Program-made: the position numbers and the translations under genes
Shown: positions 2,778 through 40,456 of the stretch, piece by piece
Layout: each line of letters begins with the position of its first letter
Position numbering within the stretch: position 1 is the stretch's first letter
Origin: a virus
Lineage: Duplodnaviria > Heunggongvirae > Uroviricota > Caudoviricetes
Virus record (IMG/VR): IMGVR_UViG_3300012007_000011
Span: 64,155-127,383 of that record
Direction: 5' to 3' (one strand)
DNA length: 63,229 nucleotides
Notes under the pieces: generated by a model
The model's input: the letters and a program-made list of their open reading frames with translations, nothing else
Database searches by the model: none
What the model was told of the DNA's origin: nothing

Positions 2778-3029
2778 TTAATCTACCGTAATTCTATACA
2801 AACGTTTAACTACATCTGAGCATACCTTATCAAACTCTTCTTTTGTGCTTAATTTCCATTCATAATCTTCGGCACGAAGAGTCAAATCTTTACCATTGTT
2901 ACCGTCAAAATAAATACGATAAACATAAGCAGCCATAATATTGACAAATTCTTGATATTCAAGAACTTTCGGTTCACGCACAATTTCCACCTCGTTAACC
3001 TCAACGTATTTCTTTCCTTCCATAATCAC
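2778..3029 (-). CDS. Hypothetical protein
   Basis: ORF tightly packed in the operon. Confidence 0.6.
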   Translation of the reverse strand: MIMEGKKYVEVNEVEIVREPKVLEYQEFVNIMAAYVYRIYFDGNNGKDLTLRAEDYEWKLSTKEEFDKVCSDVVKRLYRITVD

Positions 3030-4453
3030 TTTATTTTATAGCCTTTTATATGTTTTAATAATTCAGTTCTTGTAATCTTCGGATTGTTGTATGCTAACTT
3101 CATTGCGTATTCAAGACAATCCTTGACATCTCTACCAGGTTCAATACCCTTTATGAACATTACATCATCACCGTTGATAGGTAACTTATAGTCAAACATG
3201 TCTGTTTTGTCATCAACCATTCTATTTGTGAGTTTGTTTATTATATACACTTGATTAGGAAGACAATGGTCAATAGCATGAGATTTGTTATCTGCATCAA
3301 TTAATGTCAAAAGTTCAAAAAACCTTACATAACCACACTGATATTGAAGTTTTCTAAGTGTCTTGTCCTTCATATGCTCACAAGTATCACCCCATTGCTT
3401 TGTTCTCATATGATTCTCAATAAGAAACTTAACCCTATCAATAAAATCGTTTGAATATTTAAGTCTTCTTAAAATGATTTCGGCAATGTCAGCGCCTGCA
3501 AGTTCGTGTCCATAAAAGTGTACCCTACCCTTATCATCAACACTTTTTACATACGGTTTGCCAATATCGTGCAATAGTGCAGCCATTCTTACATCAAGGG
3601 AGGCAACTCCATAAAAAGGTCTCTTCGCAACCAAATTAAGTACATTCAACGTATGTTCCCAAACGTCATTTTCATGATACTCATTCTGTAAAACATCAAC
3701 AGTATCGTAAAGTTCTGGAATAACATACCTCATTGCTCCAATATCAACAAGCAAACGCATTGCACAAACAGGGTCATCGCACATAAGCATCTTGTTCAAC
3801 TCATCAGCAATACGCTCCTTTGTGATAATTCTAAGTCTATCAACCTTGTCGCACATACCTTTAAGTGTATCTTCCTCAATGTGCCAATCTTTATTTTCAG
3901 CATGAAACCTTGAATAAAATCTGACGCATCTAAGAATGCGTAAGGCATCATCGTCATATACGATATCAGGTGTTGAAGTAACCCTAATTCTATGTTCCTT
4001 TATGTCTTTCTGACCGCCACAGCAATCAACTATCTGATTTGTACTAATGTTCAAATATAAAGCATTGATTGTAAGGTCTCTGCGCATTGCATCCTCATAC
4101 AACGTTCCATATTCTGTTTCTGGATTACGGCTATTCTTGTCCTTATATTGTTCCTTTCTTGTCTGAACACATTCAATTTCAACCTCTGGATATTCATTCA
4201 GACGAAACATTGTAGTACCATAGGTAGGATAAGTTACAACGCTTCCGTGTGTATAACCATTCTCTTCCATCCATTTGGCAATTTCAATACCGCCATTTGG
4301 AAATTCAACAACAATGTCAACATCTTTGATTTCCTTATTCATCAGCAAATCTCTGACAGCACCACCCACCACATAGGTTTTGCCATCAAACTTTGTACCA
4401 TTGATAAGGTTTTTTATATATAATACAATTTTATGAAACTTATCCTCCGTCAT
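3026..4453 (-). CDS. cca: CCA-adding tRNA nucleotidyltransferase with HD domain
   Basis: VGGAVRDLL..DVDIV, DAMRRDLTINAL, DDALRILR, LLHDIGKP. Confidence 0.9.
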   Translation of the reverse strand: MTEDKFHKIVLYIKNLINGTKFDGKTYVVGGAVRDLLMNKEIKDVDIVVEFPNGGIEIAKWMEENGYTHGSVVTYPTYGTTMFRLNEYPEVEIECVQTRKEQYKDKNSRNPETEYGTLYEDAMRRDLTINALYLNISTNQIVDCCGGQKDIKEHRIRVTSTPDIVYDDDALRILRCVRFYSRFHAENKDWHIEEDTLKGMCDKVDRLRIITKERIADELNKMLMCDDPVCAMRLLVDIGAMRYVIPELYDTVDVLQNEYHENDVWEHTLNVLNLVAKRPFYGVASLDVRMAALLHDIGKPYVKSVDDKGRVHFYGHELAGADIAEIILRRLKYSNDFIDRVKFLIENHMRTKQWGDTCEHMKDKTLRKLQYQCGYVRFFELLTLIDADNKSHAIDHCLPNQVYIINKLTNRMVDDKTDMFDYKLPINGDDVMFIKGIEPGRDVKDCLEYAMKLAYNNPKITRTELLKHIKGYKIK

Positions 4454-24482: not shown

Positions 24483-24815
24483 TTAACCATTAAGAATTGA
24501 AGTTATATTAACATTTTTTGGTTTTATAATAACAGGTATTTTTCCCTTTTTTGAATCAATTAATAAAACCCCAATAATAACATTATCATTTTGTACTTCA
24601 CTTTCAATATATCTTTTGAAATCGTTAAGATTTACACCTTCAACTTTATCAAGTATCGCAAATTCAAGATTGTCAATGTCACTGTCATAGCCTAATTTAC
24701 TAAGATTATAAGTGTATCTCTCTTCATCTGCAAAATTATATATTGTAAATAACATATCCTTAAATGGTTTATCAAACATTTGTTTGGTTAAACCGTTAAA
24801 ACTTTTTAATAACAT
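24483..24815 (-). CDS. Hypothetical protein
   Basis: ORF. Confidence 0.55.
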   Translation of the reverse strand: MLLKSFNGLTKQMFDKPFKDMLFTIYNFADEERYTYNLSKLGYDSDIDNLEFAILDKVEGVNLNDFKRYIESEVQNDNVIIGVLLIDSKKGKIPVIIKPKNVNITSILNG

Positions 24816-24835
24816 TTTCTTTCTTTTTTATTTTC

Positions 24836-25120
24836 TTATTTTTCTTCCGGTACCTTTAGCAAAATTTCATTACCGTTTACTTTCATTTTCATTCTTTTGC
24901 TACTACAGACACCATTATTATCAACACTAACAACATACAAATCCCCATTTGGTGCTTTGCATACATTACTAAAACCATTTAATTCACTTATAGGAGTTTT
25001 TCCATCACCAACGAAAAATTCATTTGTATCATATCCATAAGCAAGTTCACCGTCAGAAGGTATAAACTTACTGCCACTTCCCTTATTATGTCCTCTTTTT
25101 ACAAAAACCTTCATTTCCAT
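24836..25120 (-). CDS. Small protein with Mtd-N/hyaluronidase-N-like motif
   Basis: PSDGELAYGYDTNEFFVGDGKTPISEL. Confidence 0.55.
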   Translation of the reverse strand: MEMKVFVKRGHNKGSGSKFIPSDGELAYGYDTNEFFVGDGKTPISELNGFSNVCKAPNGDLYVVSVDNNGVCSSKRMKMKVNGNEILLKVPEEK

Positions 25121-25156
25121 ATTAAATACATTTTAACTTTTTATATAAAAACAGAT

Positions 25157-25181
25157 AATACCAGCCGTTAAGGCTGGTATT
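25157..25181 (-). terminator. Hairpin terminator closing the Y-RNA triplet
   Basis: AATACCAGCC-gttaa-GGCTGGTATT. Confidence 0.6.
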
Positions 25182-25217
25182 CTTAATACATATTGGAACA
25201 AAATTATAAACCTAAAA

Positions 25218-25349
25218 ATGAGGGAAAATTATTAAGAGAGACAAACATGTAATAACATGCCGAATCGGAATCGAACCGATAATCTAAAACTTAAAAGGTT
25301 TTTGCTTTATCCATTAAGCCATCGAAGTAACTCTTAAACCGCCACTCAT
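25218..25349 (-). ncRNA. Y-RNA-like element Y1 with tRNA-Lys(UUU)-like cargo
   Basis: AUGAG/CUCAU stem, UGGCGG loop, UUAAGAG/CUCUUAA stem, UUACUUCG, then D arm, AAAAC-CUUUUAA-GUUUU, T arm AUCGG-UUCGAUU-CCGAU. Confidence 0.7.
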
Positions 25350-25360
25350 GTATATTTTAA

Positions 25361-25496
25361 AAACCGAAGAATAATAAGAAGTCTAAAACTATAAATGTTT
25401 AAGTTGGACTTGAACCAACAATCTTAATTTCCCATAAATTACGTCTTTACCATTTTGACTATTAAACGAAGTAAGACTATCTTCCGCTATCGGTTT
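25361..25496 (-). ncRNA. Y-RNA-like element Y2 with tRNA-like cargo (UGG loop)
   Basis: AAACCGA/UCGGUUU, UAGCGG, AAGAUAGUCU/AGACUUCUU, UUACUUCG, D arm, UAAUU-UAUGGGA-AAUUA, GUUGG-UUCAAGU-CCAAC. Confidence 0.7.
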
Positions 25497-25517
25497 GTTT
25501 GTTTTTATTTATTAAAA

Positions 25518-25602
25518 ATCAGAGAAAAACATTCAGACTATAATCTAATACTATAAAAACCCATTCTTTATCATTCGAAGTAAGTCTGAAACCACTACTG
25601 AT
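25518..25602 (-). ncRNA. Y-RNA-like element Y3, minimal; identical to 33460-33544
   Basis: AUCAG/CUGAU, UAGUGG, UUCAGACU/AGUCUGAA, UUACUUCG, AU-rich loop. Confidence 0.7.
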
Positions 25603-25606
25603 TTCT

Positions 25607-25648
25607 TTTCATTTGCAAATATAATGCTTATTTTTGAAACTTCCAAAT
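25607..25648 (-). promoter_or_regulatory. Bacteroidota-type promoter driving Y3-Y2-Y1
   Basis: Nearly identical to the ompA promoter repeat (TTTG-N19-TATATTTG). Confidence 0.75.
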
Positions 25649-25712
25649 ATTTTTGAAGAAAAAATCAAAGAAATATATATTTTTAATAAAAATTAAGAGG
25701 AAATCGGCAACG

Positions 25713-25805
25713 TCAGTTTGTCAAATTCCCTCTCATTAACAATTCACCCTGTATTTCAAGTAATGAACGTAAATGTTTTTTAACATTATTAAAAATTTTC
25801 TTCAT
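25713..25805 (-). CDS. smORF, 30 aa
   Basis: MKKIFNNVKKHLRSLLEIQGELLMRGNLTN. Confidence 0.5.
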   Translation of the reverse strand: MKKIFNNVKKHLRSLLEIQGELLMRGNLTN

Positions 25806-25839
25806 AAAAATCGTTTTTAAATTAAACTTATTTTTTTTT

Positions 25840-25947
25840 TTAATCAACCTTATTAACATTATAAGGTATCATTCCTGTTGGCAAAAACGCATTGTTTAAA
25901 ATGGCGTTCTGCCATGTCTTGTTACAAAATTTTAAAATTTTCTTCAT
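25840..25947 (-). CDS. smORF, 35 aa
   Basis: MKKILKFCNKTWQNAILNNAFLPTGMIPYNVNKVD. Confidence 0.5.
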   Translation of the reverse strand: MKKILKFCNKTWQNAILNNAFLPTGMIPYNVNKVD

Positions 25948-25978
25948 AATATTTATCATCTTTAAAAGTTTAAAAAAG

Positions 25979-26077
25979 TTATTTTCCTAAATTGTTCAGA
26001 AATTTAAAAGTGTAATAAAGACTGCCACATATTGCAACAGTATATACACCCAATAAATACGCTATCTCAATTGTCAT
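25979..26077 (-). CDS. smORF, 32 aa, single transmembrane segment
   Basis: MTIEIAYLLGVYTVAICGSLYYTFKFLNNLGK. Confidence 0.5.
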   Translation of the reverse strand: MTIEIAYLLGVYTVAICGSLYYTFKFLNNLGK

Positions 26078-26268
26078 AATCATTATCTATTTAACAAAAT
26101 TATTTTCTAACAATTAGACAAAACTGAACTCATTAAGCCGATTTCCTCTTTAAATCTTTATAAACTTTATATATAAATAGTTCTGTGTTCGCACACAAAC
26201 AAGTTATAACGCTTGTTTTTAACAATTACAAGTAATTTTATGACATATATCAAGATGTTTTGAAAAAT

Positions 26269-26362
26269 AAGGTGGCTCAGGGCGCCTGTTTCTACTGATT
26301 TAAGCCTGATTAACTCAACAACAATCCTTTTAGTTTCTGTCTATAAATCCAGACACCACCTT
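26269..26362 (-). ncRNA. Candidate small structured RNA
   Basis: AAGGUGG/CCACCUU closing stem with inner UGUCU/AGACA and UCAGG/CCUGA hairpins. Confidence 0.35.
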
Positions 26363-26373
26363 AATATGTTATG

Positions 26374-26457
26374 CTCGCAGAGTGCGATTCGAACACACGG
26401 TAGCAATGCTACGGCAGTTTTGGAGACTGCTGGGTTAAACCACTCCCCCATCTGCGA
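26374..26457 (-). tRNA. tRNA with CCA (Trp) anticodon and long variable arm
   Basis: UCGCAGA/UCUGCGA, GCAGU-CUCCAAA-ACUGC, variable arm GUAGC-AUU-GCUAC, G73. Confidence 0.85.
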
Positions 26458-26463
26458 ATGTTT

Positions 26464-27180
26464 TTATAAACCTAAATATTTTTTTAATTCTTGTTTCTTT
26501 GTTGGTAAACCATAATGGGCAAACCATTTGGTTATTGCTTTGTCTGATACATTATATAACTTACCAACACCCCTAAAACTACCAACTTCTTTAAAAATTT
26601 CACACAACGTTTCTTTTGAAGGATGATTTTTAGACCATCTATTTTCTAAAAAAGTCAGCCATTTTTCTTTTTCTATGTGTTTTTTAGAAATATTATTAGA
26701 ATAAGTTGTTGTTTTCTCTTTATTAGCATTTTTACCCGCATATGTATCTGTTTGACTGTGGCAATTAGGACATAGTAATTGTAAATTTTCCAATCTATTG
26801 TCATGGTGATTACCATTAATGTGATGTAATTGCAATGATATTGGTTTTCCATGCCATTCTGATAACCCACATTCTGGATTTTCACATTTATATTTTTTAA
26901 TACCCTCTTTAATTAATCTTTCTTTGAGTCTATTTGTGCTTTTATATGAACTATTTTCCACTAAAATATCCTTTAAGTCCATTGGTGGATTATTTTTATT
27001 CCAATAAACTTTCTTATATGAAAAAACTAATTCAATGCCCAACTCTTTTGCTAAATTACGCACTTCCTTATAATCTTCACCACCAACATTTTTAATCCCC
27101 ATTCTATGACAAAGGTCTAACATATTAACACATTTGTCAGCATTCTCAATAAGTTTATCTATTGCGTATTCACGTTTCAT
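26464..27180 (-). CDS. HNH endonuclease (free-standing, homing-type)
   Basis: CENPECG..LQLHHINGNHHDNRLENLQLLCPNCHSQT; start moved to MKREYA. Confidence 0.9.
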   Translation of the reverse strand: MKREYAIDKLIENADKCVNMLDLCHRMGIKNVGGEDYKEVRNLAKELGIELVFSYKKVYWNKNNPPMDLKDILVENSSYKSTNRLKERLIKEGIKKYKCENPECGLSEWHGKPISLQLHHINGNHHDNRLENLQLLCPNCHSQTDTYAGKNANKEKTTTYSNNISKKHIEKEKWLTFLENRWSKNHPSKETLCEIFKEVGSFRGVGKLYNVSDKAITKWFAHYGLPTKKQELKKYLGL

Positions 27181-27284
27181 ATCTATAATCCTTTTTATTA
27201 TAAATATTACGTAAATTTCAAAAATCGAACTTATTTGGAAAATTATTTTGGTTCGATTTACCAATTAAAACTATCTATTTAAAA

Positions 27285-27545
27285 AGCCTACAAGTTGTCA
27301 TCTTATAGGCCAAACTTTCACAACGATGAAAGTAAAAAGTGGTTGGTTTACCTTTAGTCTCCACTTAAACCACAGAGAAATTTGAGACTGTCTATGTATT
27401 ACTTTTGTCACAGACAACAAATGTCGTTTATAACACCCAAACAACATTCAAAACGTTTCTTTTTAAGGATGCAAGAAAATAACCTCACTTTGTTTACAGA
27501 TAAAGTTACGAAATACATTATCCACGTCTTTCCGTGCTGTCAGAC
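27285..27545 (-). ncRNA. Candidate structured RNA or trailer downstream of tRNA-Ala, ending in a terminator
   Basis: Starts GUCUGACAGCACGGAAAGACGUG; ends GCCUAUAAG/CUUGUAGGC-UUUUU. Confidence 0.35.
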
Positions 27546-27547
27546 TG

Positions 27548-27620
27548 TGGACCGTATCGGATTCGAACCGCAAATCTTCCGTGCAAGGGAAGTGTGTTAG
27601 CCAATTACACCATACAGCCC
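27548..27620 (-). tRNA. tRNA-Ala(TGC)
   Basis: Cloverleaf, CU-UGC-AC loop, G3:U70. Confidence 0.9.
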
Positions 27621-27643
27621 ATTTAAACGAATATTAAGCCATG

Positions 27644-27717
27644 TACCCCCAGTAGGATTCAAACCTACAACTTTCAGATTAGAAGTCTGATACTCTATTC
27701 AGTTGAGTTATAGGGGC
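27644..27717 (-). tRNA. tRNA-Arg(TCT)
   Basis: UCAGA-CUUCUAA-UCUGA. Confidence 0.9.
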
Positions 27718-27719
27718 TT

Positions 27720-28679
27720 TTAATTAACACAATATAATTTGTCTATTTTTTCATTGTATCTATAAAATTTACATTTTAATTCATTTATTATTTGTTTCTG
27801 TCTTTTTATATCTTTCTCTTTCAATATGTTATTATAAACATCTTTATAATGTTTCGGTTCATCATATTCAAAAGCAATATTTAGTTGTTCATCATAACCA
27901 TCTAGAAAGAAGCCACAAACTTGTTTTTCTCCACCATTTTCTGCATGTATTAAATTCCATCCATTTTTACTATTCAAAAAATCAATATATTTGCATGCAT
28001 TCTTTGAATAGTGTTGTCCAAAATCTCCATTACCATTCTTTTTAATATATTCAATCATTTTTTCACGCAATATTTGTTTTGTTTCTTCTGTGTGTGGTTT
28101 GCCATTAATCTTGAATTTTCCGTCTTCAAAAGATTTTTTACGTGTTTCCGTTTGTTTCAATATTCTAACATCATCTTTTGCTGTTTTTCCTTTGTTCCAT
28201 ATTGTATGTCCGTTTGCATTTCCACCGTTTCCTTTCCGATTTGGACATTTTGTTCTATTTGGATTTTCACAACATGCTTCTTCGTGTATTGCTAAACAAC
28301 CAGGATTTTTTACTTTTTTTCCACAAAATCTACATGAATATTCTGATGTATCATTGTGAATATGTTCTCTGGCATTTTTTGTATTCTCAAGATTGGCAAT
28401 ATACTTCGGATTCTTTTTACAATATGTTACATGACCCCCCAATTTATATTTATTATCAAAAACTTTGCCACAATACTTACAAACATATTTTGGTTTTTCA
28501 TAACTGTAAAATTGTTTTGTTTTCTTATCTATAATTTGTATACCTAACTTAATAGCAATTTTCTTTATGTGACTTCCTCTTTTTATACCGTATAAATCGG
28601 CAATTGTTTGATAAGGAACTCTTTTTTCTATTAAGGCACGCAAATTATCTTTTTCGTTTTGCCAATTAATTCTATGCAT
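27720..28679 (-). CDS. Zinc-finger/NUMOD-type PD-(D/E)xK endonuclease (homing-type)
   Basis: CKYCGK/CRFCGK, IWNKGKT, KPHTEETKQ, FLDGYD..IAFEYDEPKH. Confidence 0.75.
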   Translation of the reverse strand: MHRINWQNEKDNLRALIEKRVPYQTIADLYGIKRGSHIKKIAIKLGIQIIDKKTKQFYSYEKPKYVCKYCGKVFDNKYKLGGHVTYCKKNPKYIANLENTKNAREHIHNDTSEYSCRFCGKKVKNPGCLAIHEEACCENPNRTKCPNRKGNGGNANGHTIWNKGKTAKDDVRILKQTETRKKSFEDGKFKINGKPHTEETKQILREKMIEYIKKNGNGDFGQHYSKNACKYIDFLNSKNGWNLIHAENGGEKQVCGFFLDGYDEQLNIAFEYDEPKHYKDVYNNILKEKDIKRQKQIINELKCKFYRYNEKIDKLYCVN

Positions 28680-28755
28680 ATTAATAACTATATTTCCTAT
28701 TTATTTATAAATATCAACAATAAGTGTAAAATACATCTTTAATTCAAAAAAATTG

Positions 28756-28785
28756 ACCTTGTTCTATCCATTGAACTATCGGAAG
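28756..28785 (-). pseudogene. tRNA 5'-half remnant
   Basis: CUUCCGA UA GUUC AAUGGAUA GAAC AAGGUC with no T arm or 3' acceptor strand. Confidence 0.55.
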
Positions 28786-28933
28786 AAATTTTGTTTTCAG
28801 GCATGAAACAATAACCGGTTTTATATTCTCGCCATATTCCTTTAACGAGCAATTCGTATCTTTTCAGGGATTGCCACCTCTTGATATGTTACCACATCAA
28901 GTTGTACCTTTTATTATTAGGTAGGCACTGACC

Positions 28934-29278
28934 TTATCTGTTCATTAGTCTTCTGTATGCCTCGTCATAACCCTCCATGAATCCTTTTTTCCATTCATCA
29001 AGATTCTCGTTCACGGGTTGTTTCTTTTCAACAAGATTGCCATTGATAAGCACTGACCTGTCTAATTTTTCATTGACTTTCTTCATAGCATCAATTCGTT
29101 CTTGACCGCCAATTCTTCTAATGAAGGCATCCATATCCAAAGCTTCATACTCACCTACTTTATCATTGACTTCCTTATGAAATTTCTTCTCATCTTCCTT
29201 GAACCTTTGCAGAACCTCTTCATCAGTTAGAGATTCATCATTAAGTTGCTTCTTGTAATCTTCCAATAAACTACCCAT
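28934..29278 (-). CDS. Hypothetical protein
   Basis: 114-aa ORF with typical composition. Confidence 0.65.
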   Translation of the reverse strand: MGSLLEDYKKQLNDESLTDEEVLQRFKEDEKKFHKEVNDKVGEYEALDMDAFIRRIGGQERIDAMKKVNEKLDRSVLINGNLVEKKQPVNENLDEWKKGFMEGYDEAYRRLMNR

Positions 29279-29307
29279 AATATCAAAACGTTTTATATTT
29301 TATTTTG

Positions 29308-29389
29308 TGCTCACGAAGGGATTCGAACCCATACGCCTTACGACACTTGGTCCTTAGCCAAGCCTGTCTACCATTTCCAGCACGTGAGC
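29308..29389 (-). tRNA. tRNA-Leu(AAG)
   Basis: CUUGG-CUAAGGA-CCAAG, class II variable arm, A73. Confidence 0.85.
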
Positions 29390-29395
29390 AAATTG

Positions 29396-29470
29396 TACTC
29401 CCAATGAGATTCGAACTCATATCTTTGCCTTGAGAGGGCAACCACCTAAACCGATTAGTATGATGAGAGC
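29396..29470 (-). tRNA. tRNA-Glu(CTC)
   Basis: UUGCC-CUCUCAA-GGCAA. Confidence 0.85.
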
Positions 29471-29579
29471 ATATAAAAGGTTGGAACTCTTGCAAGATAA
29501 TCACTGTACCCCTCTTTTCGGTCCTCCAACTTAATGGCAACCCCTACTTATACTCATACATGATTAAATTCCAACTTTG

Positions 29580-29657
29580 TACTCCAAGTAGGACTCGAAC
29601 CTACACCCGAAGACTTGATTTTGAATCAAGCGTGTCTACCAATTCCACCATTGGAGC
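29580..29657 (-). tRNA. tRNA-Leu(CAA)
   Basis: CUUGA-UUCAAAA-UCAAG. Confidence 0.9.
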
Positions 29658-29836
29658 ATTACACATTCTCTACATAGGATTTCCTTTTTTAAAGAGCAAC
29701 TGCAATAATCTCTTCCTATGGTCATTGAAAATGCTTTTAATATGGTTTTAGTTTGAACATCAATTGTAGTACTACTTGATATTTTCAATATACTATACAC
29801 TCCGAAAACTCATATCTTAAATGTGTGCAGTATTCG

Positions 29837-29907
29837 TTGGGTTATCCGGATTCGAACCGAAACTAACAGAACCAAAATCTGTGGTGCTACCATTACACCA
29901 TAACCCA
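29837..29907 (-). tRNA. tRNA-Gln(TTG)
   Basis: ACAGA-UUUUGGU-UCUGU. Confidence 0.9.
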
Positions 29908-29949
29908 TTGTAAATCAATAATTTACAAAAGTTTGTTAAAGTAAATCTG

Positions 29950-30036
29950 CGGAGAGCAGTGGAGTCGAACCACACCCATGTTACTGAGCGAAGCAGGTTA
30001 GCAATCTGTCCCTATCACCGTCAAGGTTTACTCTCC
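29950..30036 (-). tRNA. tRNA-Ser(GCT), weak anticodon stem
   Basis: UU-GCU-AA loop, long variable arm, G73; two mismatches in the anticodon stem. Confidence 0.75.
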
Positions 30037-30040
30037 AAAG

Positions 30041-30113
30041 TACCCCGAAAAGGAATCGAACCCTTACCGTGACATCCGTAGTGTCGTATTCTAATCCGTT
30101 AAACTACCGGGGC
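30041..30113 (-). tRNA. tRNA-Arg(ACG)
   Basis: GACA-CUACGGA-UGUC. Confidence 0.9.
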
Positions 30114-30128
30114 ATCTATCCTTTCTTG

Positions 30129-30219
30129 CGGAAGTAGAGGGACTCGAACCCCCACACCGTTATTCACGATTACTAGCGGTTTTCAAGACCGCTGCCTTAC
30201 CAATTAGGCTTATACTTCC
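30129..30219 (-). tRNA. tRNA-Ser(TGA)
   Basis: GCGGU-CUUGAAA-ACCGC, long variable arm. Confidence 0.9.
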
Positions 30220-30790
30220 TTGTACGGGAATTTGTTTAATTGTTTCTCCAAAGTTTATCCCGAAACTACTCTCTGGATATTTGGGTGCGACCCAACCTCC
30301 GTTTTTGTATACTGAATGAGCCTAAAATGAAATTCTTGCAAGAATATTGATGATTCGAACACCTACCTAGTACAATTGCTAGATACCCCATTGCCATCGA
30401 GGAATATAATTTCAAATTAGACATTTATAACTTATCCTCTCCCCTTATTACCATCACTTCTGTAGAGAGTTTACCCGCCCGATATAAGTCATTTTGCTCA
30501 GTATATAATATGTGTCGTTATTTCTCTAACATATAAAAATGAAAGGTCAACCGTATTCCCTTTCGTGTACCGATAAGTTTTTCATTGTGTTCAAGGCACA
30601 CAACTGCGCAAGCAACGAGGGCGGTATTTCAACTTAAACCTCAGTCAGACGGAAATAAATAGCATATAGATAGGACGTTTTTTAGGACTTTCACCTATAG
30701 TTTTATACTTTTCAGATTTCGCTGAAACATCACCATTGATTCAAGGTGTGAACCCTGTGCAGAATTGTTAAACAGTAATTATTGTTTTAC
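30220..30790 (-). ncRNA. Probable ROOL large ncRNA (boundaries approximate)
   Basis: About 570-nt ORF-free structured tract between tRNAs, with GAUGUUUCAGCGAAAUCUGAAAAGU near the 5' end and GGAGGUUGGGUCGCACCC..AUCCAGAGAGUAGUUUC near the 3' end, matching ROOL sequences as I recall them. Confidence 0.6.
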
Positions 30791-30859
30791 GGCTACTGCA
30801 TTTTGCCAACCTATCATTCTCGGGTTAAACGTTTTTGCATATACTATTGTTTTAAAAAG

Positions 30860-30933
30860 GGTGACGTGTTGGATTCGAACCAACGTAAACAAGTGCCACA
30901 AACTTGCGCTTAAGCCACTCAGCCAACGTCACC
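30860..30933 (-). tRNA. tRNA-His(GTG)
   Basis: CAAGU-UUGUGGC-ACUUG, G-1:C73. Confidence 0.9.
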
Positions 30934-30948
30934 ATATTATTAGATATG

Positions 30949-31019
30949 TGTACCCACTGGGAATCGAACCCAGGTCACGTGATTAAAAGTCACGGGCTTT
31001 ACCCCTAAGCTATGAGTAC
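30949..31019 (-). tRNA. tRNA-Lys(TTT)
   Basis: CGUGA-CUUUUAA-UCACG. Confidence 0.9.
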
Positions 31020-31025
31020 AAAAAG

Positions 31026-31099
31026 CGGAACGTGGGAGATTCGAACTCCGAACTTCACTGTGACAGAGTGATATGTTAGCCAATTACACTACACGCTCC
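31026..31099 (-). tRNA. tRNA-Asp(GTC)
   Basis: UCACU-CUGUCAC-AGUGA. Confidence 0.9.
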
Positions 31100-31110
31100 A
31101 TTATTTTTTG

Positions 31111-31184
31111 TGGTCACGGACAGACTTGAACTGCCGACCCCCATCTTATCAGGATGGTAATCTAACCAACTGATATACGTGACC
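31111..31184 (-). tRNA. tRNA-Ile(GAT)
   Basis: CCAUC-CUGAUAA-GAUGG. Confidence 0.9.
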
Positions 31185-31284
31185 ATTATATAAATGAGGG
31201 TTTCTTGCTATTTACTACCCACAAATGTCAACGACACCCAATTATTCCTTAAATGTTCTCCCGGCTTTCGTTCTTGGAGCCCAG

Positions 31285-31370
31285 TAGCCGAAGCGGGACT
31301 CGAACCCGCACAGGCATTACTGCCCCTCAGATTTTAAGTCTAATGTGTCTACCGGTTCCACCATTCGGCC
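31285..31370 (-). tRNA. tRNA-Leu(TAA)
   Basis: UUAGA-CUUAAAA-UCUGA, class II. Confidence 0.9.
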
Positions 31371-31372
31371 AA

Positions 31373-31690
31373 CTATTTATCAAAATACATATATTCAAAA
31401 TTTTCGTTAATTGGTGCATTTTTACTGATTAAATCTGTTCTTTTAATCTTCCTACCTAATGCCTTTTCCATACATTCATAGCATAAATATAAATGTTCTT
31501 CATCTTTATGTTTAGCCCTCAAACCACTTCTATAATAATGTTCGATAAACTTATTATGTGCTTCCCTTTCATAATTTTCCAAACCATAAAAATGAACAAC
31601 TTCTTCCCACTTTTTGTCTTTTAACATTGGAGATTGACAATCTCCATAAATGAATTTTCTTCCACAAACCTTACATTGACATCTACCCAT
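31373..31690 (-). CDS. Hypothetical Cys-containing protein inside the tRNA array
   Basis: CQCKVC..CYEC; start moved to MGRCQC because the longer start overlaps tRNA-Thr. Confidence 0.65.
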   Translation of the reverse strand: MGRCQCKVCGRKFIYGDCQSPMLKDKKWEEVVHFYGLENYEREAHNKFIEHYYRSGLRAKHKDEEHLYLCYECMEKALGRKIKRTDLISKNAPINENFEYMYFDK

Positions 31691-31716
31691 AATATTAAAC
31701 CTTTTAATTATTTTTG

Positions 31717-31788
31717 AGCCGGTGATGGGGGTCGAACCCACAGCCTACTGATTACAAATCAGTTGCACAACCATCGTGCTCCACCGGC
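31717..31788 (-). tRNA. tRNA-Thr(TGT)
   Basis: ACUGA-UUUGUAA-UCAGU. Confidence 0.9.
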
Positions 31789-31800
31789 AAATTTATCTTG

Positions 31801-31873
31801 TGGGAAGGGGTGGAATCGAACCACCATAGCCAGATTTTCAGTCTGGTGCATTGACCAACTTTGCTACCTTCCC
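31801..31873 (-). tRNA. tRNA-Phe(GAA)
   Basis: CCAGA-CUGAAAA-UCUGG. Confidence 0.9.
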
Positions 31874-31875
31874 AA

Positions 31876-32058
31876 TTGTACGTTTTGATAAGGAGAACGT
31901 ACAAACTCATCTCGGATTGTATATAATGTCCTTATTGAAATTCTTGCAAGATTACCCTTGGCAGTGTTCCAATACACGTTATTATTCCGGACTGACTCTG
32001 ACCTTAACCGAACCAAAGATAAATTTCAACTTGAACACCCTTCCAAATCCCTTTATCT
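31876..32058 (-). ncRNA. Candidate structured RNA sharing motifs with the ROOL tract and 34035-34140
   Basis: UGUUCAAGUUG ... CUUGCAAGAAUUUCA; terminal UUGUACGUU/AACGUACAA hairpin. Confidence 0.45.
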
Positions 32059-32074
32059 ATTTTTTTTTTCTATG

Positions 32075-32145
32075 AGTTCCCTATTGGAGTTGAACCAATC
32101 TGAACGGTTTTGCAGACCGCTACCTAACCGCTCGGTCAAGGAAAC
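32075..32145 (-). tRNA. tRNA-Cys(GCA)
   Basis: GCGGU-CUGCAAA-ACCGU, U73. Confidence 0.9.
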
Positions 32146-32252
32146 AAAAAATGTCTGCTACAAACGATAGACGCACGTCTCACAGACTATGATGGTTAGC
32201 CGAAGCCTTATTAAGTGTTGCGCACCACACCACCAAGACTTTAATTATTGTG

Positions 32253-32327
32253 TACTCCCTGGGAGACTCGAACTCCATCATTTCTGCCGTGAAAGGGCAA
32301 CGTCCTAACCTATTAGACGAAGGGAGC
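32253..32327 (-). tRNA. tRNA-Glu(TTC)
   Basis: UUGCC-CUUUCAC-GGCAG. Confidence 0.9.
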
Positions 32328-32339
32328 ATCTATAAAGAT

Positions 32340-32760
32340 AAAAACAATGTCTCGGCTAAAATAAATTCTTATGACGAATTAATTACTGCATTGTAGTTTG
32401 TGGCTAAGAATTGCGTTGTCACAACTGCCCTTCCTGAATTTATGGTATTGGGCATATTCGGTTTTACAAACCGATAAAACTTAATTCCAATTTCCGCTTG
32501 TACTGTCGGAACTTACAGTAATTACATCACAACAGGTATCAATACTCAGAATGTGAAGGAAACTTAAATAACCATTTCAGATTACTTTAAATCAAGAATG
32601 TTTGCAACCATTCAAGTCACATTATGTGAGATAAACACCTTTACCCTGTTGCTCTTCGTTTGGGTATTTAGAATGCCCTTGGCCAATTCTACCGCATTCT
32701 ATCTTGAATCCTCTGTACCTGCGGATTCTTCCCAATTGAAACCACTGTCCTTAATCTTTA
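32340..32760 (-). ncRNA. Candidate large structured RNA (about 420 nt)
   Basis: Serial hairpins GAAUCC/GGAUUC, GAAUGC/GCAUUC, UCACAU/AUGUGA, GAAUG/CAUUC, UACUGU/ACAGUA, UCGGUUU/AAACCGA. Confidence 0.45.
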
Positions 32761-32765
32761 TAATG

Positions 32766-32849
32766 TGGGAGTGGAGGGATTCGAACCCCCTAAACCGAAA
32801 GGCAACGGATTTACAGTCCGTCCCAACTCACCATCGTTGGCGCACTCCC
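32766..32849 (-). tRNA. tRNA-Tyr(GTA)
   Basis: ACGGA-CUGUAAA-UCCGU, class II. Confidence 0.9.
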
Positions 32850-32961
32850 ATGAATATTTAAAGTAGTCTTGCAAGTACGCAGACAGTAACCTGTTCTCCA
32901 GGTATCTCACGCTAATTTTCAACTGTCATGCACTACTCTAAATACATTTCATAATTATTTG

Positions 32962-33036
32962 TGGGTCTTGTTAGGCTCGAACTAACGACTTCCACCTTGT
33001 AAGGGTGACACTCTAAACCAACTGAGTTAAAGACCC
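32962..33036 (-). tRNA. tRNA-Val(TAC)
   Basis: UCACC-CUUACAA-GGUGG. Confidence 0.9.
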
Positions 33037-33382
33037 GAAATGTTGAACCTTCGGTCTTCTTTTGGTAGTCCAACGTTGTTAGGTATTCCCTTAACCTAAA
33101 CCATTGTTCACGGGTTTCATTTAATACAAATGTATCAGTGATGTTTCCATATTTTCCCCAACAATCGTTATTTACTCTCAGTGCATGGAAATTTGCTACT
33201 TTCAATAACCAACTGAAAATGACAATGTAATACGATAATACAGATTACACGGCCTTACCACTCTCCACTTATTTCAACCTGCGGAGATACAGCCCCTAAA
33301 ACCACCAAAACAATGACTCGCAAGCAGGTCTCTACTATCATCAACCTTTCCATATTATTATATTACATTATATATAGAATTG

Positions 33383-33454
33383 AGCAGGTGAACAGAATCG
33401 AACTGTCATCCTCTGCTTGGAAGGCAGACGCACTAGCCATTGTGCTACACCTGC
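33383..33454 (-). tRNA. tRNA-Gly(TCC)
   Basis: UCUGC-CUUCCAA-GCAGA, U73. Confidence 0.9.
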
Positions 33455-33459
33455 AAAAA

Positions 33460-33544
33460 ATCAGAGAAAAACATTCAGACTATAATCTAATACTATAAAA
33501 ACCCATTCTTTATCATTCGAAGTAAGTCTGAAACCACTACTGAT
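33460..33544 (-). ncRNA. Y-RNA-like element Y4, exact 85-bp copy of Y3
   Basis: Identical to 25518-25602. Confidence 0.7.
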
Positions 33545-33558
33545 ATGCTGTAAAAAAT

Positions 33559-33710
33559 AACAGAGGACATCTAAAAAAACTGAAGACTTTTATAAATTCT
33601 TTTTGCCAAGAACTGCGTATACCATTTCGCCAAATTTCTGATTTTATGGTAGAAATTATCGGATTCGAACCGATATTATATTCGAAGTAAGTTTTTTTAC
33701 CACTACTGTT
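33559..33710 (-). ncRNA. Y-RNA-like element Y5 with circularly permuted tRNA domain (YrlA-type order T, acceptor, D)
   Basis: AACAG/CUGUU, UAGUGG, UAAAAAAAC/GUUUUUUUA, UUACUUCG, AUCGG-UUCGAAU-CCGAU, AUUUCU-ACCA..AGAAAU, GCG-AAAUGGUAUA-CGC. Confidence 0.75.
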
Positions 33711-33722
33711 ATATTCTTTTAG

Positions 33723-33794
33723 TGGGGGGAGTAGGATTTGCACCTACGACTTACTGCTTATGAGACAGTCACGCTACTACTGCGTCATCCCCCC
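33723..33794 (-). tRNA. tRNA-Met/Ile2(CAT), atypical
   Basis: CU-CAU-AA loop; T loop UGCAAAU; D loop lacks GG. Confidence 0.75.
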
Positions 33795-33806
33795 TTATTA
33801 TATAAA

Positions 33807-33942
33807 AAACCGAAGAATAATAAGAAGTCTAATTTTAAAGATAAATGTGGGACTCGAACCCACGATTTTAAGTACCCAAAAAACTTACGTATTAACCACT
33901 ATACAAATTCATCGAAGTAAGACTATCTTCCGCTATCGGTTT
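33807..33942 (-). ncRNA. Y-RNA-like element Y6, Y2 scaffold with a different tRNA-like cargo
   Basis: Ends identical to Y2; cargo GUAU-AGUGGUUA-AUAC, UAAGU-UUUUUGGGU-ACUUA, GUGGG-UUCGAGU-CCCAC. Confidence 0.7.
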
Positions 33943-33959
33943 TATTTTTTAGGCATAAA

Positions 33960-34140
33960 AAGGAAATCCATTACATTCCACTATCCTGTACAACTGTCAA
34001 TCAAGCGTTGCCTACAGTAACTTCTTCTGTTTATCTAAAAGTTGAAATTCTTGTACAAGTGGGGATGAAAAGGATGGGTAAATTTATCAAGTCCGTAAAT
34101 CCCAATTCCAACTTGAACAATGACAGATGTTTCCTTTATG
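33960..34140 (-). ncRNA. Candidate structured RNA related to 31876-32058
   Basis: AUAAAGG..UGUUCAAGUUG..CUUGUACAAGAAUUUCAA..UUGACAGUUG. Confidence 0.4.
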
Positions 34141-34159
34141 GATTTTTTTTTTATTAAAT

Positions 34160-34370
34160 GAGTAAGTAAATTTACGAGCCACGGACTGTTGAGGATTTAC
34201 AGAAAAAAAACACACCTCATCTGTTGCGTTGCCTCTTATGATACCTCACGGTAATCAACACGTTTCAACAAGCTGACGGTCACATTTAGTGCCGATGACT
34301 ACGTTTCACACAATTGACTAGTATAATGTAAAACTTACCTTGTTCACTACTAAGTGGTCTGTACTTACTC
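34160..34370 (-). ncRNA. Candidate 211-nt structured RNA
   Basis: 9-bp closing stem GAGUAAGUA/UACUUACUC and GNRA-capped hairpins (ACC-GUGA-GGU and others). Confidence 0.5.
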
Positions 34371-34464
34371 AAAAAGCCAAAAATAAGTTTCCGTTACGCA
34401 AATTTCTCCATCTTGCTTGATGGGCTGTTGTGTTCATCCTTATTCATTTTATGGCTTTTATAAG

Positions 34465-34536
34465 CGGGGAAGGGGAATTACGATATCCCGACCTACTGAT
34501 TAACAGTCAGTTGCTCTGCCTCTGAGCTACTTCCCC
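34465..34536 (-). tRNA. tRNA-Asn(GTT), atypical T arm
   Basis: ACUGA-CUGUUAA-UCAGU; T arm GGGAU-AUCGUAA-UUCCC; G73. Confidence 0.85.
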
Positions 34537-35297: not shown

Positions 35298-35478
35298 TCG
35301 GAGTTGTGTGACTCGAACACACGACCACTGCATCGCTGTATAAATGGTAATCGCAACCATTTTTAATCCTTATGAGGATTAGAATTATCTAAATATATTC
35401 TATATACAGTTTCATTTTTTTCAGTCTTTTGTTGACTGTATCCAAATGCAGCATTCTAACCTACTGAACTAAACTCCG
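35298..35478 (-). tRNA. tRNA-Pro(TGG) interrupted by a 107-nt insert (35335-35441)
   Basis: 5' exon CGGAGUU UA GUUC AGUAGGUUA GAAU G CUGCA UUUGG and 3' exon GA UGCAG UGGUC GUGUG UUCGAGU CACAC AACUCCG A join into a perfect cloverleaf. Confidence 0.9.
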
Positions 35479-35507: not shown

Positions 35508-35548
35508 TTTCGTTTGCAAAGGTAAGTCATTTTTTTGACTTGGCCAAA
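35508..35548 (-). promoter_or_regulatory. Bacteroidota-type promoter upstream of tRNA-Pro
   Basis: TTTGG-N19-TACCTTTGCAAACGAAA. Confidence 0.75.
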
Positions 35549-38782: not shown

Positions 38783-40456
38783 CTAAATCTCAATTGCTTC
38801 AATTTCTTTGATGATAGCGTCCCAACCTCGGCACTGAGACTTGATAGTGTCAAAAATTTTGTCACTCCAACCAGCAATGTTAAGGATTCGCTGTGACTTG
38901 TCGAATACACTCGTTCCGCCACTCTGACGAATATTTACCACAATGAAGTTGGCATTCGGATTAATTTTTCTGAACTCTTTGAAAAGTTCATGGAAATGCT
39001 CACTTTTTTCGCCATATGTATGTCCATACCAAGCGGTAAATGGGCCACCACGTCCAATCTGACAATCTGAGAAGACAATAATATTGTCAATCTTCTTTCT
39101 TTCCTTTACAACATTCTCAAGGAATGTGTAAATACCCGCTTCAGTTGCACCTCCGCAACGTCCACCAATCTCATATGATTCCTTATTGAAATCAAGGAGT
39201 TTCACATTACGCTTGTAAGGTACTTGGATAAGTCTGTCACCGAACAAACCAACATACACATCATGCTGTCTCCAAGCCATCATGCTTGCGAACAAATGCG
39301 CAATCATTGAAGAATTAGTTTTGCTGAATGCAGAGACACGTGAATGTCCACCAGCATCACCACGCATAGAACCGCTATCATCTACAAGGATTGCACAATT
39401 ACCATCCAATACAGGAATGTTCTGGCAAGCAATCTCAATGGCCGTCTCAATTGCATCAAGCAAGTTCTTCTTCAGTTCATTAAACTTACTCTCACTAACT
39501 TGCTGCTTTGACTCTTCGCTCTCAAAGACAATACTGGTTGTCGGCTTTGTCTTTGTATCAGCATACATTACCTTCTCAATCTCAGCGTAAGCGGTTGCGA
39601 AGCGGAATGGAAGAAGCCTTGAATTGAGAATCTTCTTTTCAATTGTCAGTTGCTCACAAGCATCATTCACCTTATCAGGAGCATATAAGAGAATGTTTCT
39701 GAGGTTGCGAAGCAGGTTCATAACAGGCATACCCTTAACATTGTCAAGAACTGCTGTAATTGCCTCACGCTTTGCCTCCATCTTTTCTTCCTGTGTAGCA
39801 TCCTTTGTTGTCTGTCCTGCCTTAGTCATTTCCTTTTCAAGAACCTTGCTCTCATAAAGGTCTGCAAGACTTTCACCGTTTACCAGACGCTTGTATGCCT
39901 CTGCATTCTTCTGATTACCCTTTGGGTGGAAAAGACGCACAAGGTCAATAAGTGAAACCTCACGATTCTGCATCTTATACTTGTCAATCTGATAAGCATC
40001 AAGACGTTCCAATGCCTCCTTGAAGCCTTTCTTGATTGAATTTGGAATCTTCTTAAGGTCATTAAGTCCCATTCCATTAAGGTTAGCATATGCTGACACG
40101 ATTTCACTCATGTCATCCGGACGCACAACGATTCGGTTATAGAAACGCTTACCCCAATCAGTACCACCAACATACTTTGCAAGCAATGCAGATACAAGGT
40201 GAGTTACTGAACGAAGATTACCCTCGTTACGTGCATAGATTGCCAACTTAGCAGCAAACAGTGGGTCAACCTTATCAACAAGGTCTGTAATGCGCTTAAC
40301 AATCTCACCCTCTCGCTCATAGTATGAGTTCTGCAAAAATGTAGTCATTACAGTTGACACCAACAACTCCTTATCTGCCAACTTAAATGCCATCTCACCC
40401 ATGTAGTTCACTTCTGTTGGCTTAACACTCTCTTTCTTTGAATTGTACTTTCCCAT
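38783..40456 (-). CDS. rsr: Ro60/TROVE-domain ribonucleoprotein with vWA domain
   Basis: N-terminal NYMGEMAF..KELLV, AIYARNEGNLRSV, ALLRNLRN-like NLLRNLRN, LLPFRF, MIDAS LVDDSGSM, IIVFSDCQ, IAGWSD. Confidence 0.9.
   Translation of the reverse strand: MGKYNSKKESVKPTEVNYMGEMAFKLADKELLVSTVMTTFLQNSYYEREGEIVKRITDLVDKVDPLFAAKLAIYARNEGNLRSVTHLVSALLAKYVGGTDWGKRFYNRIVVRPDDMSEIVSAYANLNGMGLNDLKKIPNSIKKGFKEALERLDAYQIDKYKMQNREVSLIDLVRLFHPKGNQKNAEAYKRLVNGESLADLYESKVLEKEMTKAGQTTKDATQEEKMEAKREAITAVLDNVKGMPVMNLLRNLRNILLYAPDKVNDACEQLTIEKKILNSRLLPFRFATAYAEIEKVMYADTKTKPTTSIVFESEESKQQVSESKFNELKKNLLDAIETAIEIACQNIPVLDGNCAILVDDSGSMRGDAGGHSRVSAFSKTNSSMIAHLFASMMAWRQHDVYVGLFGDRLIQVPYKRNVKLLDFNKESYEIGGRCGGATEAGIYTFLENVVKERKKIDNIIVFSDCQIGRGGPFTAWYGHTYGEKSEHFHELFKEFRKINPNANFIVVNIRQSGGTSVFDKSQRILNIAGWSDKIFDTIKSQCRGWDAIIKEIEAIEI

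Follow-up and report, generated by a model that had tools for sequence, protein, structure and literature searches.

To our knowledge, bacteria and phages are thought to have tRNA introns of the self-splicing kind only. The tRNAs of Lak megaphages carry "enigmatic", highly conserved introns that have no Rfam match (Devoto et al., 2019, Nat Microbiol, PMC6784885). These were reported in "Tyr(GTA)", Phe, Thr and Gly tRNAs (Table S6 and Figure 4 of PMC6784885); Pro is not listed among the hosts, and neither a common architecture nor a mechanism is given. The Thr intron "itself may encode a tRNA", a possibility raised for Thr alone, and alignment of this intron to intron-less alleles moves the tRNAscan junction by one base (PMC6784885).

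Here we describe an intron of this class in a tRNA-Pro(UGG) gene. The window, by which we mean the whole 63,229-nt stretch of DNA analyzed, is the final 63 kb of a 127-kb IMG/VR phage record, for which CheckV gives a completeness of 34% and hence a genome estimate of ∼375 kb. The phage apparently uses the standard genetic code, as long ORFs are open under table 11. A tRNA gene array spans 10 kb on the minus strand of the window.

The interrupted tRNA-Pro(UGG) gene

The Rfam tRNA model RF00005 matches the minus strand across the whole interrupted gene (48.5 bits, model positions 1–71, E 5e-8 in 13 kb), with 109 nt replacing two loop positions of the model, which gives an insert of 107 nt (Table 1). 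Removal of the insert restores a canonical 7-nt anticodon loop, both in the Rfam alignment and by comparison with two intron-less homologs in IMG/VR (L113 and L114), which have nearly the same exons and the anticodon loop UUUGGGA. Given a first base of A or U and a last base of C in the insert, this loop can arise from one placement of the cut only, and the junction lies between G36 and G37. The RF00005 match and the loop of the homologs thus agree with the original prediction, made from the sequence alone, of a split tRNA-Pro(UGG) with the insert 3′ of the anticodon and followed by G37.

ARAGORN does not call the interrupted gene in bacterial mode. With introns allowed, it calls the gene with the junction slid by 1 nt and names it tRNA-Ala(UGC). 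We reject this name, since the gene is without G3·U70, has C1-G72 and A73, and has intron-less homologs that read UGG. The pair C1-G72 together with A73 marks bacterial tRNA-Pro identity. The spliced molecule combines these marks with a cloverleaf, a UGG anticodon and G37, and with no G3·U70 it is a tRNA-Pro by established identity rules. Standard tRNA finders therefore miss or misname such genes, which distorts phage tRNA inventories.

Table 1. Features of the interrupted tRNA-Pro(UGG) locus (positions are those of the window)
Feature	Position	Strand	Basis
Whole interrupted tRNA-Pro(UGG) gene, 181 nt	35298–35478	minus	Rfam RF00005 match; outer stems covary
Exon 1, tRNA nt 1–36, ends ...CUGCA UUUGG	35442–35478	minus	Rfam alignment; intron-less L113 and L114
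Intron, 107 nt, begins AUAC, ends GC	35335–35441	minus	Rfam alignment; homologous inserts in relatives
Exon 2, tRNA nt 37–73, begins GA UGCAG, no encoded CCA	35298–35334	minus	
5′ terminal AUA (class consensus WUA; U+2 and A+3 invariant)	35439–35441	minus	Alignment; Table S6 of PMC6784885
Hairpin P1, CAGUC/GACUG, loop AACAAAA	35422–35438	minus	100% paired, compensatory changes in 3/5 pairs
A-rich linker AAAAAAAUGAAA	35410–35421	minus	Invariant among Pro introns
Inner tRNA-like module, final C at discriminator position	35335–35409	minus	Covarying helices
Putative Bacteroidota-type promoter: TTTG (35545–35548), 20-nt spacer, TAccTTTG (35517–35524)	35517–35548	minus	Sequence read

Relatives were found in IMG/VR with a pattern built on the exons only; the remaining matches were due to chance and lie inside ORFs. 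Inserts at the same site of tRNA-Pro occur in several gut or rumen contigs, with lengths of 91 nt (L002, L102 and L110), 109 nt (L081) and 96 nt (L088 and L109, both from human gut); in L099, the intron is identical to that of the window and the acceptor stem differs. There are six distinct Pro-intron alleles in unrelated contigs, whose sequences diverge widely and whose layout is kept. Other searches recovered little: blastn of the locus against GenBank phages gave a chance 44-nt match only, scans of IMG/VR with intron motifs returned the window locus and L002 only (the other 66 loci being chance matches in ORFs), and a scan of GTDB genomes with the exon pattern found no true member, a match in a Prevotellaceae MAG not being a tRNA.

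The outer cloverleaf of the six intron-bearing Pro alleles is 99.2% paired, and its acceptor and T stems hold seven compensatory pairs. Because the host tRNA's own stems covary while the intron is present, the gene is under selection and is very unlikely to be a pseudogene, in keeping with the earlier view against a decayed copy. The gene also seems to have its own promoter, as had been proposed: a TTTG/TAccTTTG block, which we take to be a promoter from general knowledge of Bacteroides promoters, lies ∼39 nt upstream of the tRNA +1 position and is conserved in L081 and L099.

Among the ordinary tRNAs of the window, 19 amino acids are represented; for Pro, the interrupted gene is the only source. 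The claim that this is the sole full-length Pro tRNA holds for the 127 kb: a second Pro(UGG) call (25395–25468) is defective, with A33 and a C1/A72 mismatch, and is preceded by the scaffold motif UUACUUCG. This is one of three minus-strand calls by ARAGORN and Rfam, the others being tRNA-Lys (25255–25329) and tRNA-Gln (33839–33913), that each follow ...GAUAGUCUUACUUC or a variant of it and have a defective acceptor end or A33. All three look like the tRNA-like parts of Y-RNA-like elements rather than decoding tRNAs.

Several further features of the array and of related contigs were noted. Between tRNA-Gln and tRNA-Arg there is a weak tRNA-Sec-like match (29950–30037, minus strand; 33.4 bits against a gathering score of 47) with no ARAGORN call. 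A 266-amino-acid ORF inside the array (26464–27264, minus strand) has weak matches to HNH endonucleases, below the Pfam cut-offs, and may be a free-standing homing nuclease. In the Lak-like contigs (L002:4308–4388, minus strand, and also L102 and L110), the intron-bearing tRNA-Pro has, directly upstream, an 81-nt tRNA whose anticodon is UGG and which carries A37 and a long variable arm. Outside the window, a tRNA-shaped RNA (L240; G000:C1:46566–46771, plus strand) lies behind a TAnnTTTG promoter and has an acceptor stem, D arm and T arm with ∼110–130 nt between; an Rfam scan of this RNA gave no match, and it falls outside the Lak-type intron class.

Intron architecture and class membership

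The 3′ two-thirds of the intron follow the outline of a tRNA, with an acceptor stem, positions 8–9, a D arm, a T arm and a discriminator. In the window's copy, this inner module comprises a 7-bp acceptor-like stem (CUGUAUA/UAUACAG), UA, a 4-bp D-like hairpin, an extra hairpin found in the window's lineage only, and a T-like arm with a 6-bp stem and the 7-nt loop UGCGAUU. The acceptor-like and T-like helices would stack to 13 bp (7+6), as against the canonical 12 bp (7+5). The inserts share a common layout: WUA; P1, of 5–6 bp with an A-rich 7-nt loop; a linker ending AAAUGAAA; a 7-bp helix starting with C-G; UA; a hairpin of 4 bp; a middle part that varies; a stem of 6 bp closed by a 7-nt loop, which is degenerate in L088; the second (3′) strand of the 7-bp helix; and a last base C. 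The class consensus just 5′ of the inner module is AAAUNAAA. The linker is reminiscent of the 5′ leader of the outer tRNA gene itself, where a small hairpin and an A-rich tract, UGAAAAA, directly precede +1.

A single base separates the acceptor-like helix from exon 2 in each of the seven intron types read. On the Rfam tRNA model, the Lak Thr intron's inner module reaches 30.7 bits (gathering score 29), and position 71 of that model, the discriminator, lands on the last base of the intron. The window's own inner module has no Rfam tRNA match at E ≤ 10, so that "tRNA-like" is, for this copy, an architectural description.

The original prediction had described a folded insert, and its hairpins are present, with covariation backing CAGUC/GACUG, GAAU/AUUC and AAUGGU/ACCAUU as well as the helix CUGUAUA/UAUACAG; it had missed the tRNA shape of the 3′ two-thirds and the fact that this shape ends at the 3′ splice site. 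Covariation among orthologous inserts, which it had proposed to look for, is found: when the alignment is restricted to the five Pro introns, pairing is complete (100% of cells), with compensatory changes in 14 of the 27 pairs. The two most similar introns, those of the window and L081, already differ in this compensatory way in P1, the acceptor-like helix and the T-like stem. In a nine-sequence alignment, 99.1% of cells are standard pairs and 22 of 27 pairs have changed on both sides. Shuffled controls all fall short of these values, and sliding the structure by 1–3 columns lowers pairing to 25%–41% of cells. The alignments were fitted to the model, which favors the structure; the margin over the controls is large. 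The fold is also more stable than those of shuffled sequences (z = −3.4).

Several other pairings and repeats were considered and rejected. The repeat of ATACAG at the two ends of the intron is present in the window's copy, as had been noted, and is absent from L002 and L088, which excludes it as a target-site duplication or guide. Likewise, an internal CUGUAU can pair with the 5′ junction in the window's copy; this pairing, and with it the earlier idea of pairing with either junction, is not conserved in L002 and L088, and we reject it. Pairing of AAAUG in the linker with CAUUU in the exon cannot form in the Gly, Thr and Phe hosts. An extension of P1 to the 5′ splice site, as in an RNase P-type minihelix, pairs inconsistently across intron types.

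All four introns in Table S6 of PMC6784885 show, by eye, the layout of the window's intron. Homology was assessed with a covariance model (R1) built from the Pro introns of the window and L081 only, with the structure drawn here. It matches the other Pro introns at 72–86 bits and, with filters off, the Lak Thr (58.1 bits), Gly (35–37 bits) and "Tyr" (29.1 bits) introns. The Lak matches are full length, running from anticodon stem to anticodon stem with exact intron boundaries. A match of the same model in a complete 96-kb phage (G002) is noise, as there is no tRNA at the site. The Lak Gly intron is also present in L002 and L110, and the Lak Thr and "Tyr" introns in L112; by eye, the L110 and L112 sequences are identical or nearly so to Table S6 entries. 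The shared introns identify the L002, L110 and L112 contigs as Lak phages or close kin.

The window's intron is therefore Lak-type. It had been said to belong to no recognized intron class, which the full-length covariance-model matches contradict, since the class has been described, if not explained (PMC6784885). What is new is the host tRNA, Pro(UGG), and a phage with an apparently standard code.

A broader model (R2), run over ∼100 other phage tRNA clusters, returned ordinary tRNAs with their 5′ leaders as the best non-members, a result that fits the view of the intron as a "leader plus tRNA" unit. On the phage's own 127 kb, R2 found no second copy of the intron; it gave partial matches to the tRNA-like parts of Y-RNA-like elements, among them two of the three defective Lys, Pro and Gln calls.

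The ends of the intron are constant across the class, an invariant WUA opening it and an invariant G-C closing it. This bears on the Lak "tRNA-Tyr(GTA)" (L112:1487–1691, minus strand; Table S6 of PMC6784885), which has a short variable arm and G73. Among intron-less phage tRNAs that share its exon-2 signature, the anticodon is GUU in 122 of 122 and GUA in none. When the class-wide ends AUAC...GC are applied to the "Tyr" intron, the mature loop becomes CUGUUAA and the intron lies at 35/36, and we conclude that this gene is most likely a tRNA-Asn(GUU). If so, the published Lak Tyr assignment is corrected. The published one-base shift of the Thr junction can be read in the same way, from the unaligned entry in Table S6, as the same intron ends (UUAC...GC) and a loop CUUGUAA. 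The intron thus lies at 36/37 in Pro, Thr, Gly and Phe and at 35/36 in the Lak "Tyr". Since its ends are constant and its position in the loop moves, the splice sites are dictated by the intron itself rather than by the tRNA that hosts it.

Proposed routes of intron removal

Rfam scans and structure agree with the earlier exclusion of group I introns, bulge-helix-bulge introns and any Rfam family. There is no group I match in Rfam, and the intron is too short and has no core; the base that closes exon 1 varies with the host tRNA (G, C, U or A), and the last intron base is C. A bulge-helix-bulge cannot be drawn because the 3′ end of the intron is held in the covarying 7-bp acceptor-like helix, and PF01974 (tRNA_int_endo) is absent from the 127-kb record. 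A cmscan at E ≤ 10 for known small ribozymes (hammerhead, twister, pistol, hatchet, HDV-like and hairpin) gave no family match. A hammerhead reading of CUGA...GAAAC was rejected, being far below threshold and having core letters that the Lak Gly and Thr introns lack. As a conserved intron with no known ribozyme interrupts the only tRNA-Pro, something else must remove it.

We searched for proteins that might do so. The phage encodes two ATP-dependent RNA ligases (PF09414; positions 24505–26280 and 27105–27785 of the genome record), a CCA-adding-type enzyme (positions 68137–68532 of the genome record, within the window ORF 3026–4453) and one ORF with an AAA_33 kinase domain. A 557-amino-acid TROVE/Ro60 protein (window 38783–40456, minus strand; 70.9 bits) is encoded 3.3 kb upstream of the tRNA-Pro gene. 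The 127-kb record contains no RtcB, RNase Z or RNase E/G; a Bacteroides thetaiotaomicron control genome has matches to all three families, with no cut-off status claimed for the latter two. The original prediction had called for a search for RtcB, Rnl or an endonuclease, and in these 127 kb the ligases were found and RtcB and a splicing endonuclease were not. PF09414 is absent from the complete phage G002, which has no intron, and from a Lak fragment (G001), whose completeness of 14% makes its result uninformative.

The structure of the intron, its conservation, its exact junctions and selection on the host tRNA are established; the enzymatic steps that follow are all ones that we infer. Our preferred reading, held tentatively and at rather less than an even chance, is that this is a working tRNA-Pro(UGG) gene with a Lak-type tRNA-inside-tRNA intron that is cut out by tRNA-trimming enzymes and sealed by a ligase. 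In the array (26373–34536, minus strand), the discriminator of the ordinary tRNA genes is nearly always followed by C and A (N73-C-A), and a full CCA never occurs. With no encoded CCA, the ordinary tRNAs must be cleaved behind the discriminator and then given a CCA. A host enzyme of the RNase Z type, which trims the 3′ ends of CCA-less tRNAs, would cut after the inner discriminator, that is, at the 3′ splice site, and would leave a 5′-phosphate on G37 of exon 2. A 5′-phosphate is the end that an ATP-dependent ligase requires. With a 13-bp stack, the site at which RNase Z cuts could be displaced. RNase P would act at the 5′ edge of the inner module, before its C+1.

RNase P and RNase Z alone would not suffice, because the 5′ splice site is ∼32 nt upstream of the predicted RNase P site. 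The WUA-P1-linker segment would be left on exon 1, so that a third precise cut is needed. A third endonuclease would cut N|WUA just upstream of P1, leaving G36 with a 3′-OH, and one of the phage's ATP-dependent RNA ligases would then seal the anticodon-loop nick to give UUUGGGA. RNase E/G-type enzymes prefer U at +2, and the invariant U+2 of the intron suggests such an enzyme as a candidate, as a lead only; a dedicated nuclease encoded in the unseen two-thirds of the genome is equally possible. The wider proposal, that trimming enzymes and one nuclease excise a tRNA-shaped intron, that a phage ligase rejoins the exons and that the intron's fold sets the sites, so that this would be a further tRNA-splicing route, we hold to be rather unlikely. 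The intron itself is probably a mobile element, one that spread from anticodon loop to anticodon loop in the tRNA genes of megaphages.

Other accounts of the locus have to be weighed against trimming and ligation. A dedicated endonuclease, encoded by the phage in the unseen part of its genome or by the host, might read the folded intron, with host RtcB or a phage kinase/phosphatase and ligase joining the exons. This is in essence the route of the original prediction, whose general idea of cleavage and ligation by proteins is plausible. The invariant WUA and G-C ends and the conserved fold offer a possible protein recognition surface, the AAA_33 kinase-domain ORF and the RNA ligases would supply parts of such a pathway, RtcB is present in the B. 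thetaiotaomicron control and the record holds only 34% of the phage genome. We nevertheless consider this account unlikely, as neither tRNA_int_endo nor RtcB occurs within the 127 kb, the bulge-helix-bulge cannot form with the 3′ end locked in a covarying helix, and the conserved tRNA shape with its end at the discriminator position would be left unexplained. A new small self-cleaving or self-splicing ribozyme, with the A-rich loop, linker and helices as its core, is a good deal less probable. It would accord with the strongly conserved structure, with a stability above that of shuffled sequences and with the retention of the unpaired WUA, P1 loop and AAAUNAAA across five host tRNAs; against it, no ribozyme family matches (the best score being 14.3 bits for Hammerhead_3, with a gathering score of 48.5), the lack of U at the last exon base and of a terminal G rules out group I, and the unpaired letters that are conserved consist almost wholly of A and U, in a genome that is AT-rich. 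The conserved helices, moreover, correspond exactly to those of a tRNA, for which tRNA-processing enzymes are the simpler account.

The RNA might also never be spliced, the intron being a selfish, inactivating insertion or the 181-nt RNA being functional as it is, as a decoy, as a Ro60 ligand or by hiding the anticodon. The same phage encodes Ro60 and has tRNA-like modules in Y-RNA-like elements, which would suit such a role. Yet compensatory changes keep the outer acceptor and T stems in the intron-bearing alleles, the exons retain the identity marks of tRNA-Pro in the sole Pro tRNA of an otherwise complete set, and the intron-less orthologs are ordinary tRNAs; we rate this as the least probable of the alternatives, with little chance of being correct. 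Trimming and ligation remains the reading that we prefer, and the shared architecture, constant intron ends, phage ligases and CCA-adding enzyme make removal testable in vitro.

Comparison with known systems

A real, conserved intron in a functional tRNA-Pro extends a class unexplained since 2019 to a new host tRNA. The Lak introns and the one described here are alike in their site in the anticodon loop of a megaphage tRNA, in architecture, in having no Rfam family and in the coexistence of intron-plus and intron-minus alleles. They differ in that the Lak host tRNAs are other than Pro and the Lak phages are alternatively coded, whereas this phage, of ∼375 kb, apparently has the standard code; the class thus reaches beyond alternatively coded Lak phages.

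Group I introns, such as those of cyanobacterial tRNA-Leu(UAA) and Azoarcus tRNA-Ile, likewise occupy the anticodon loop and have a mobile, patchy distribution. In contrast to the 107 nt found here, they are ∼200 nt or more, and the present intron is without the P3–P9 core, the U·G at the 5′ site and the terminal G. Archaeal and eukaryal tRNA introns, removed by an endonuclease and RtcB or Trl1, share the site beside the anticodon and, probably, the logic of cutting and joining by proteins. Here, however, there is no bulge-helix-bulge and no EndA/Sen homolog in the 127 kb, and the splice sites, which in eukaryotes are measured from the tRNA body, are set by the conserved structure of the intron.

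For the proposed cuts, the closest parallels are mitochondrial tRNA punctuation and the mascRNA of MALAT1, in which RNA ends are defined by RNase P and RNase Z. As in these systems, a tRNA-shaped element after an A-rich tract would recruit the two enzymes; there, ends are released and the flanks stay unjoined, whereas here the flanks must be ligated. For the proposed last step, the parallel is Pnkp/Rnl1 of phage T4, in which a phage RNA ligase seals a nick in the anticodon loop. T4 mends damage done by a host nuclease, whereas the break here would belong to programmed intron removal, and the ligases of this phage are of the PF09414 family (Rnl2/Rnl5-like) rather than the Rnl1 family of T4.
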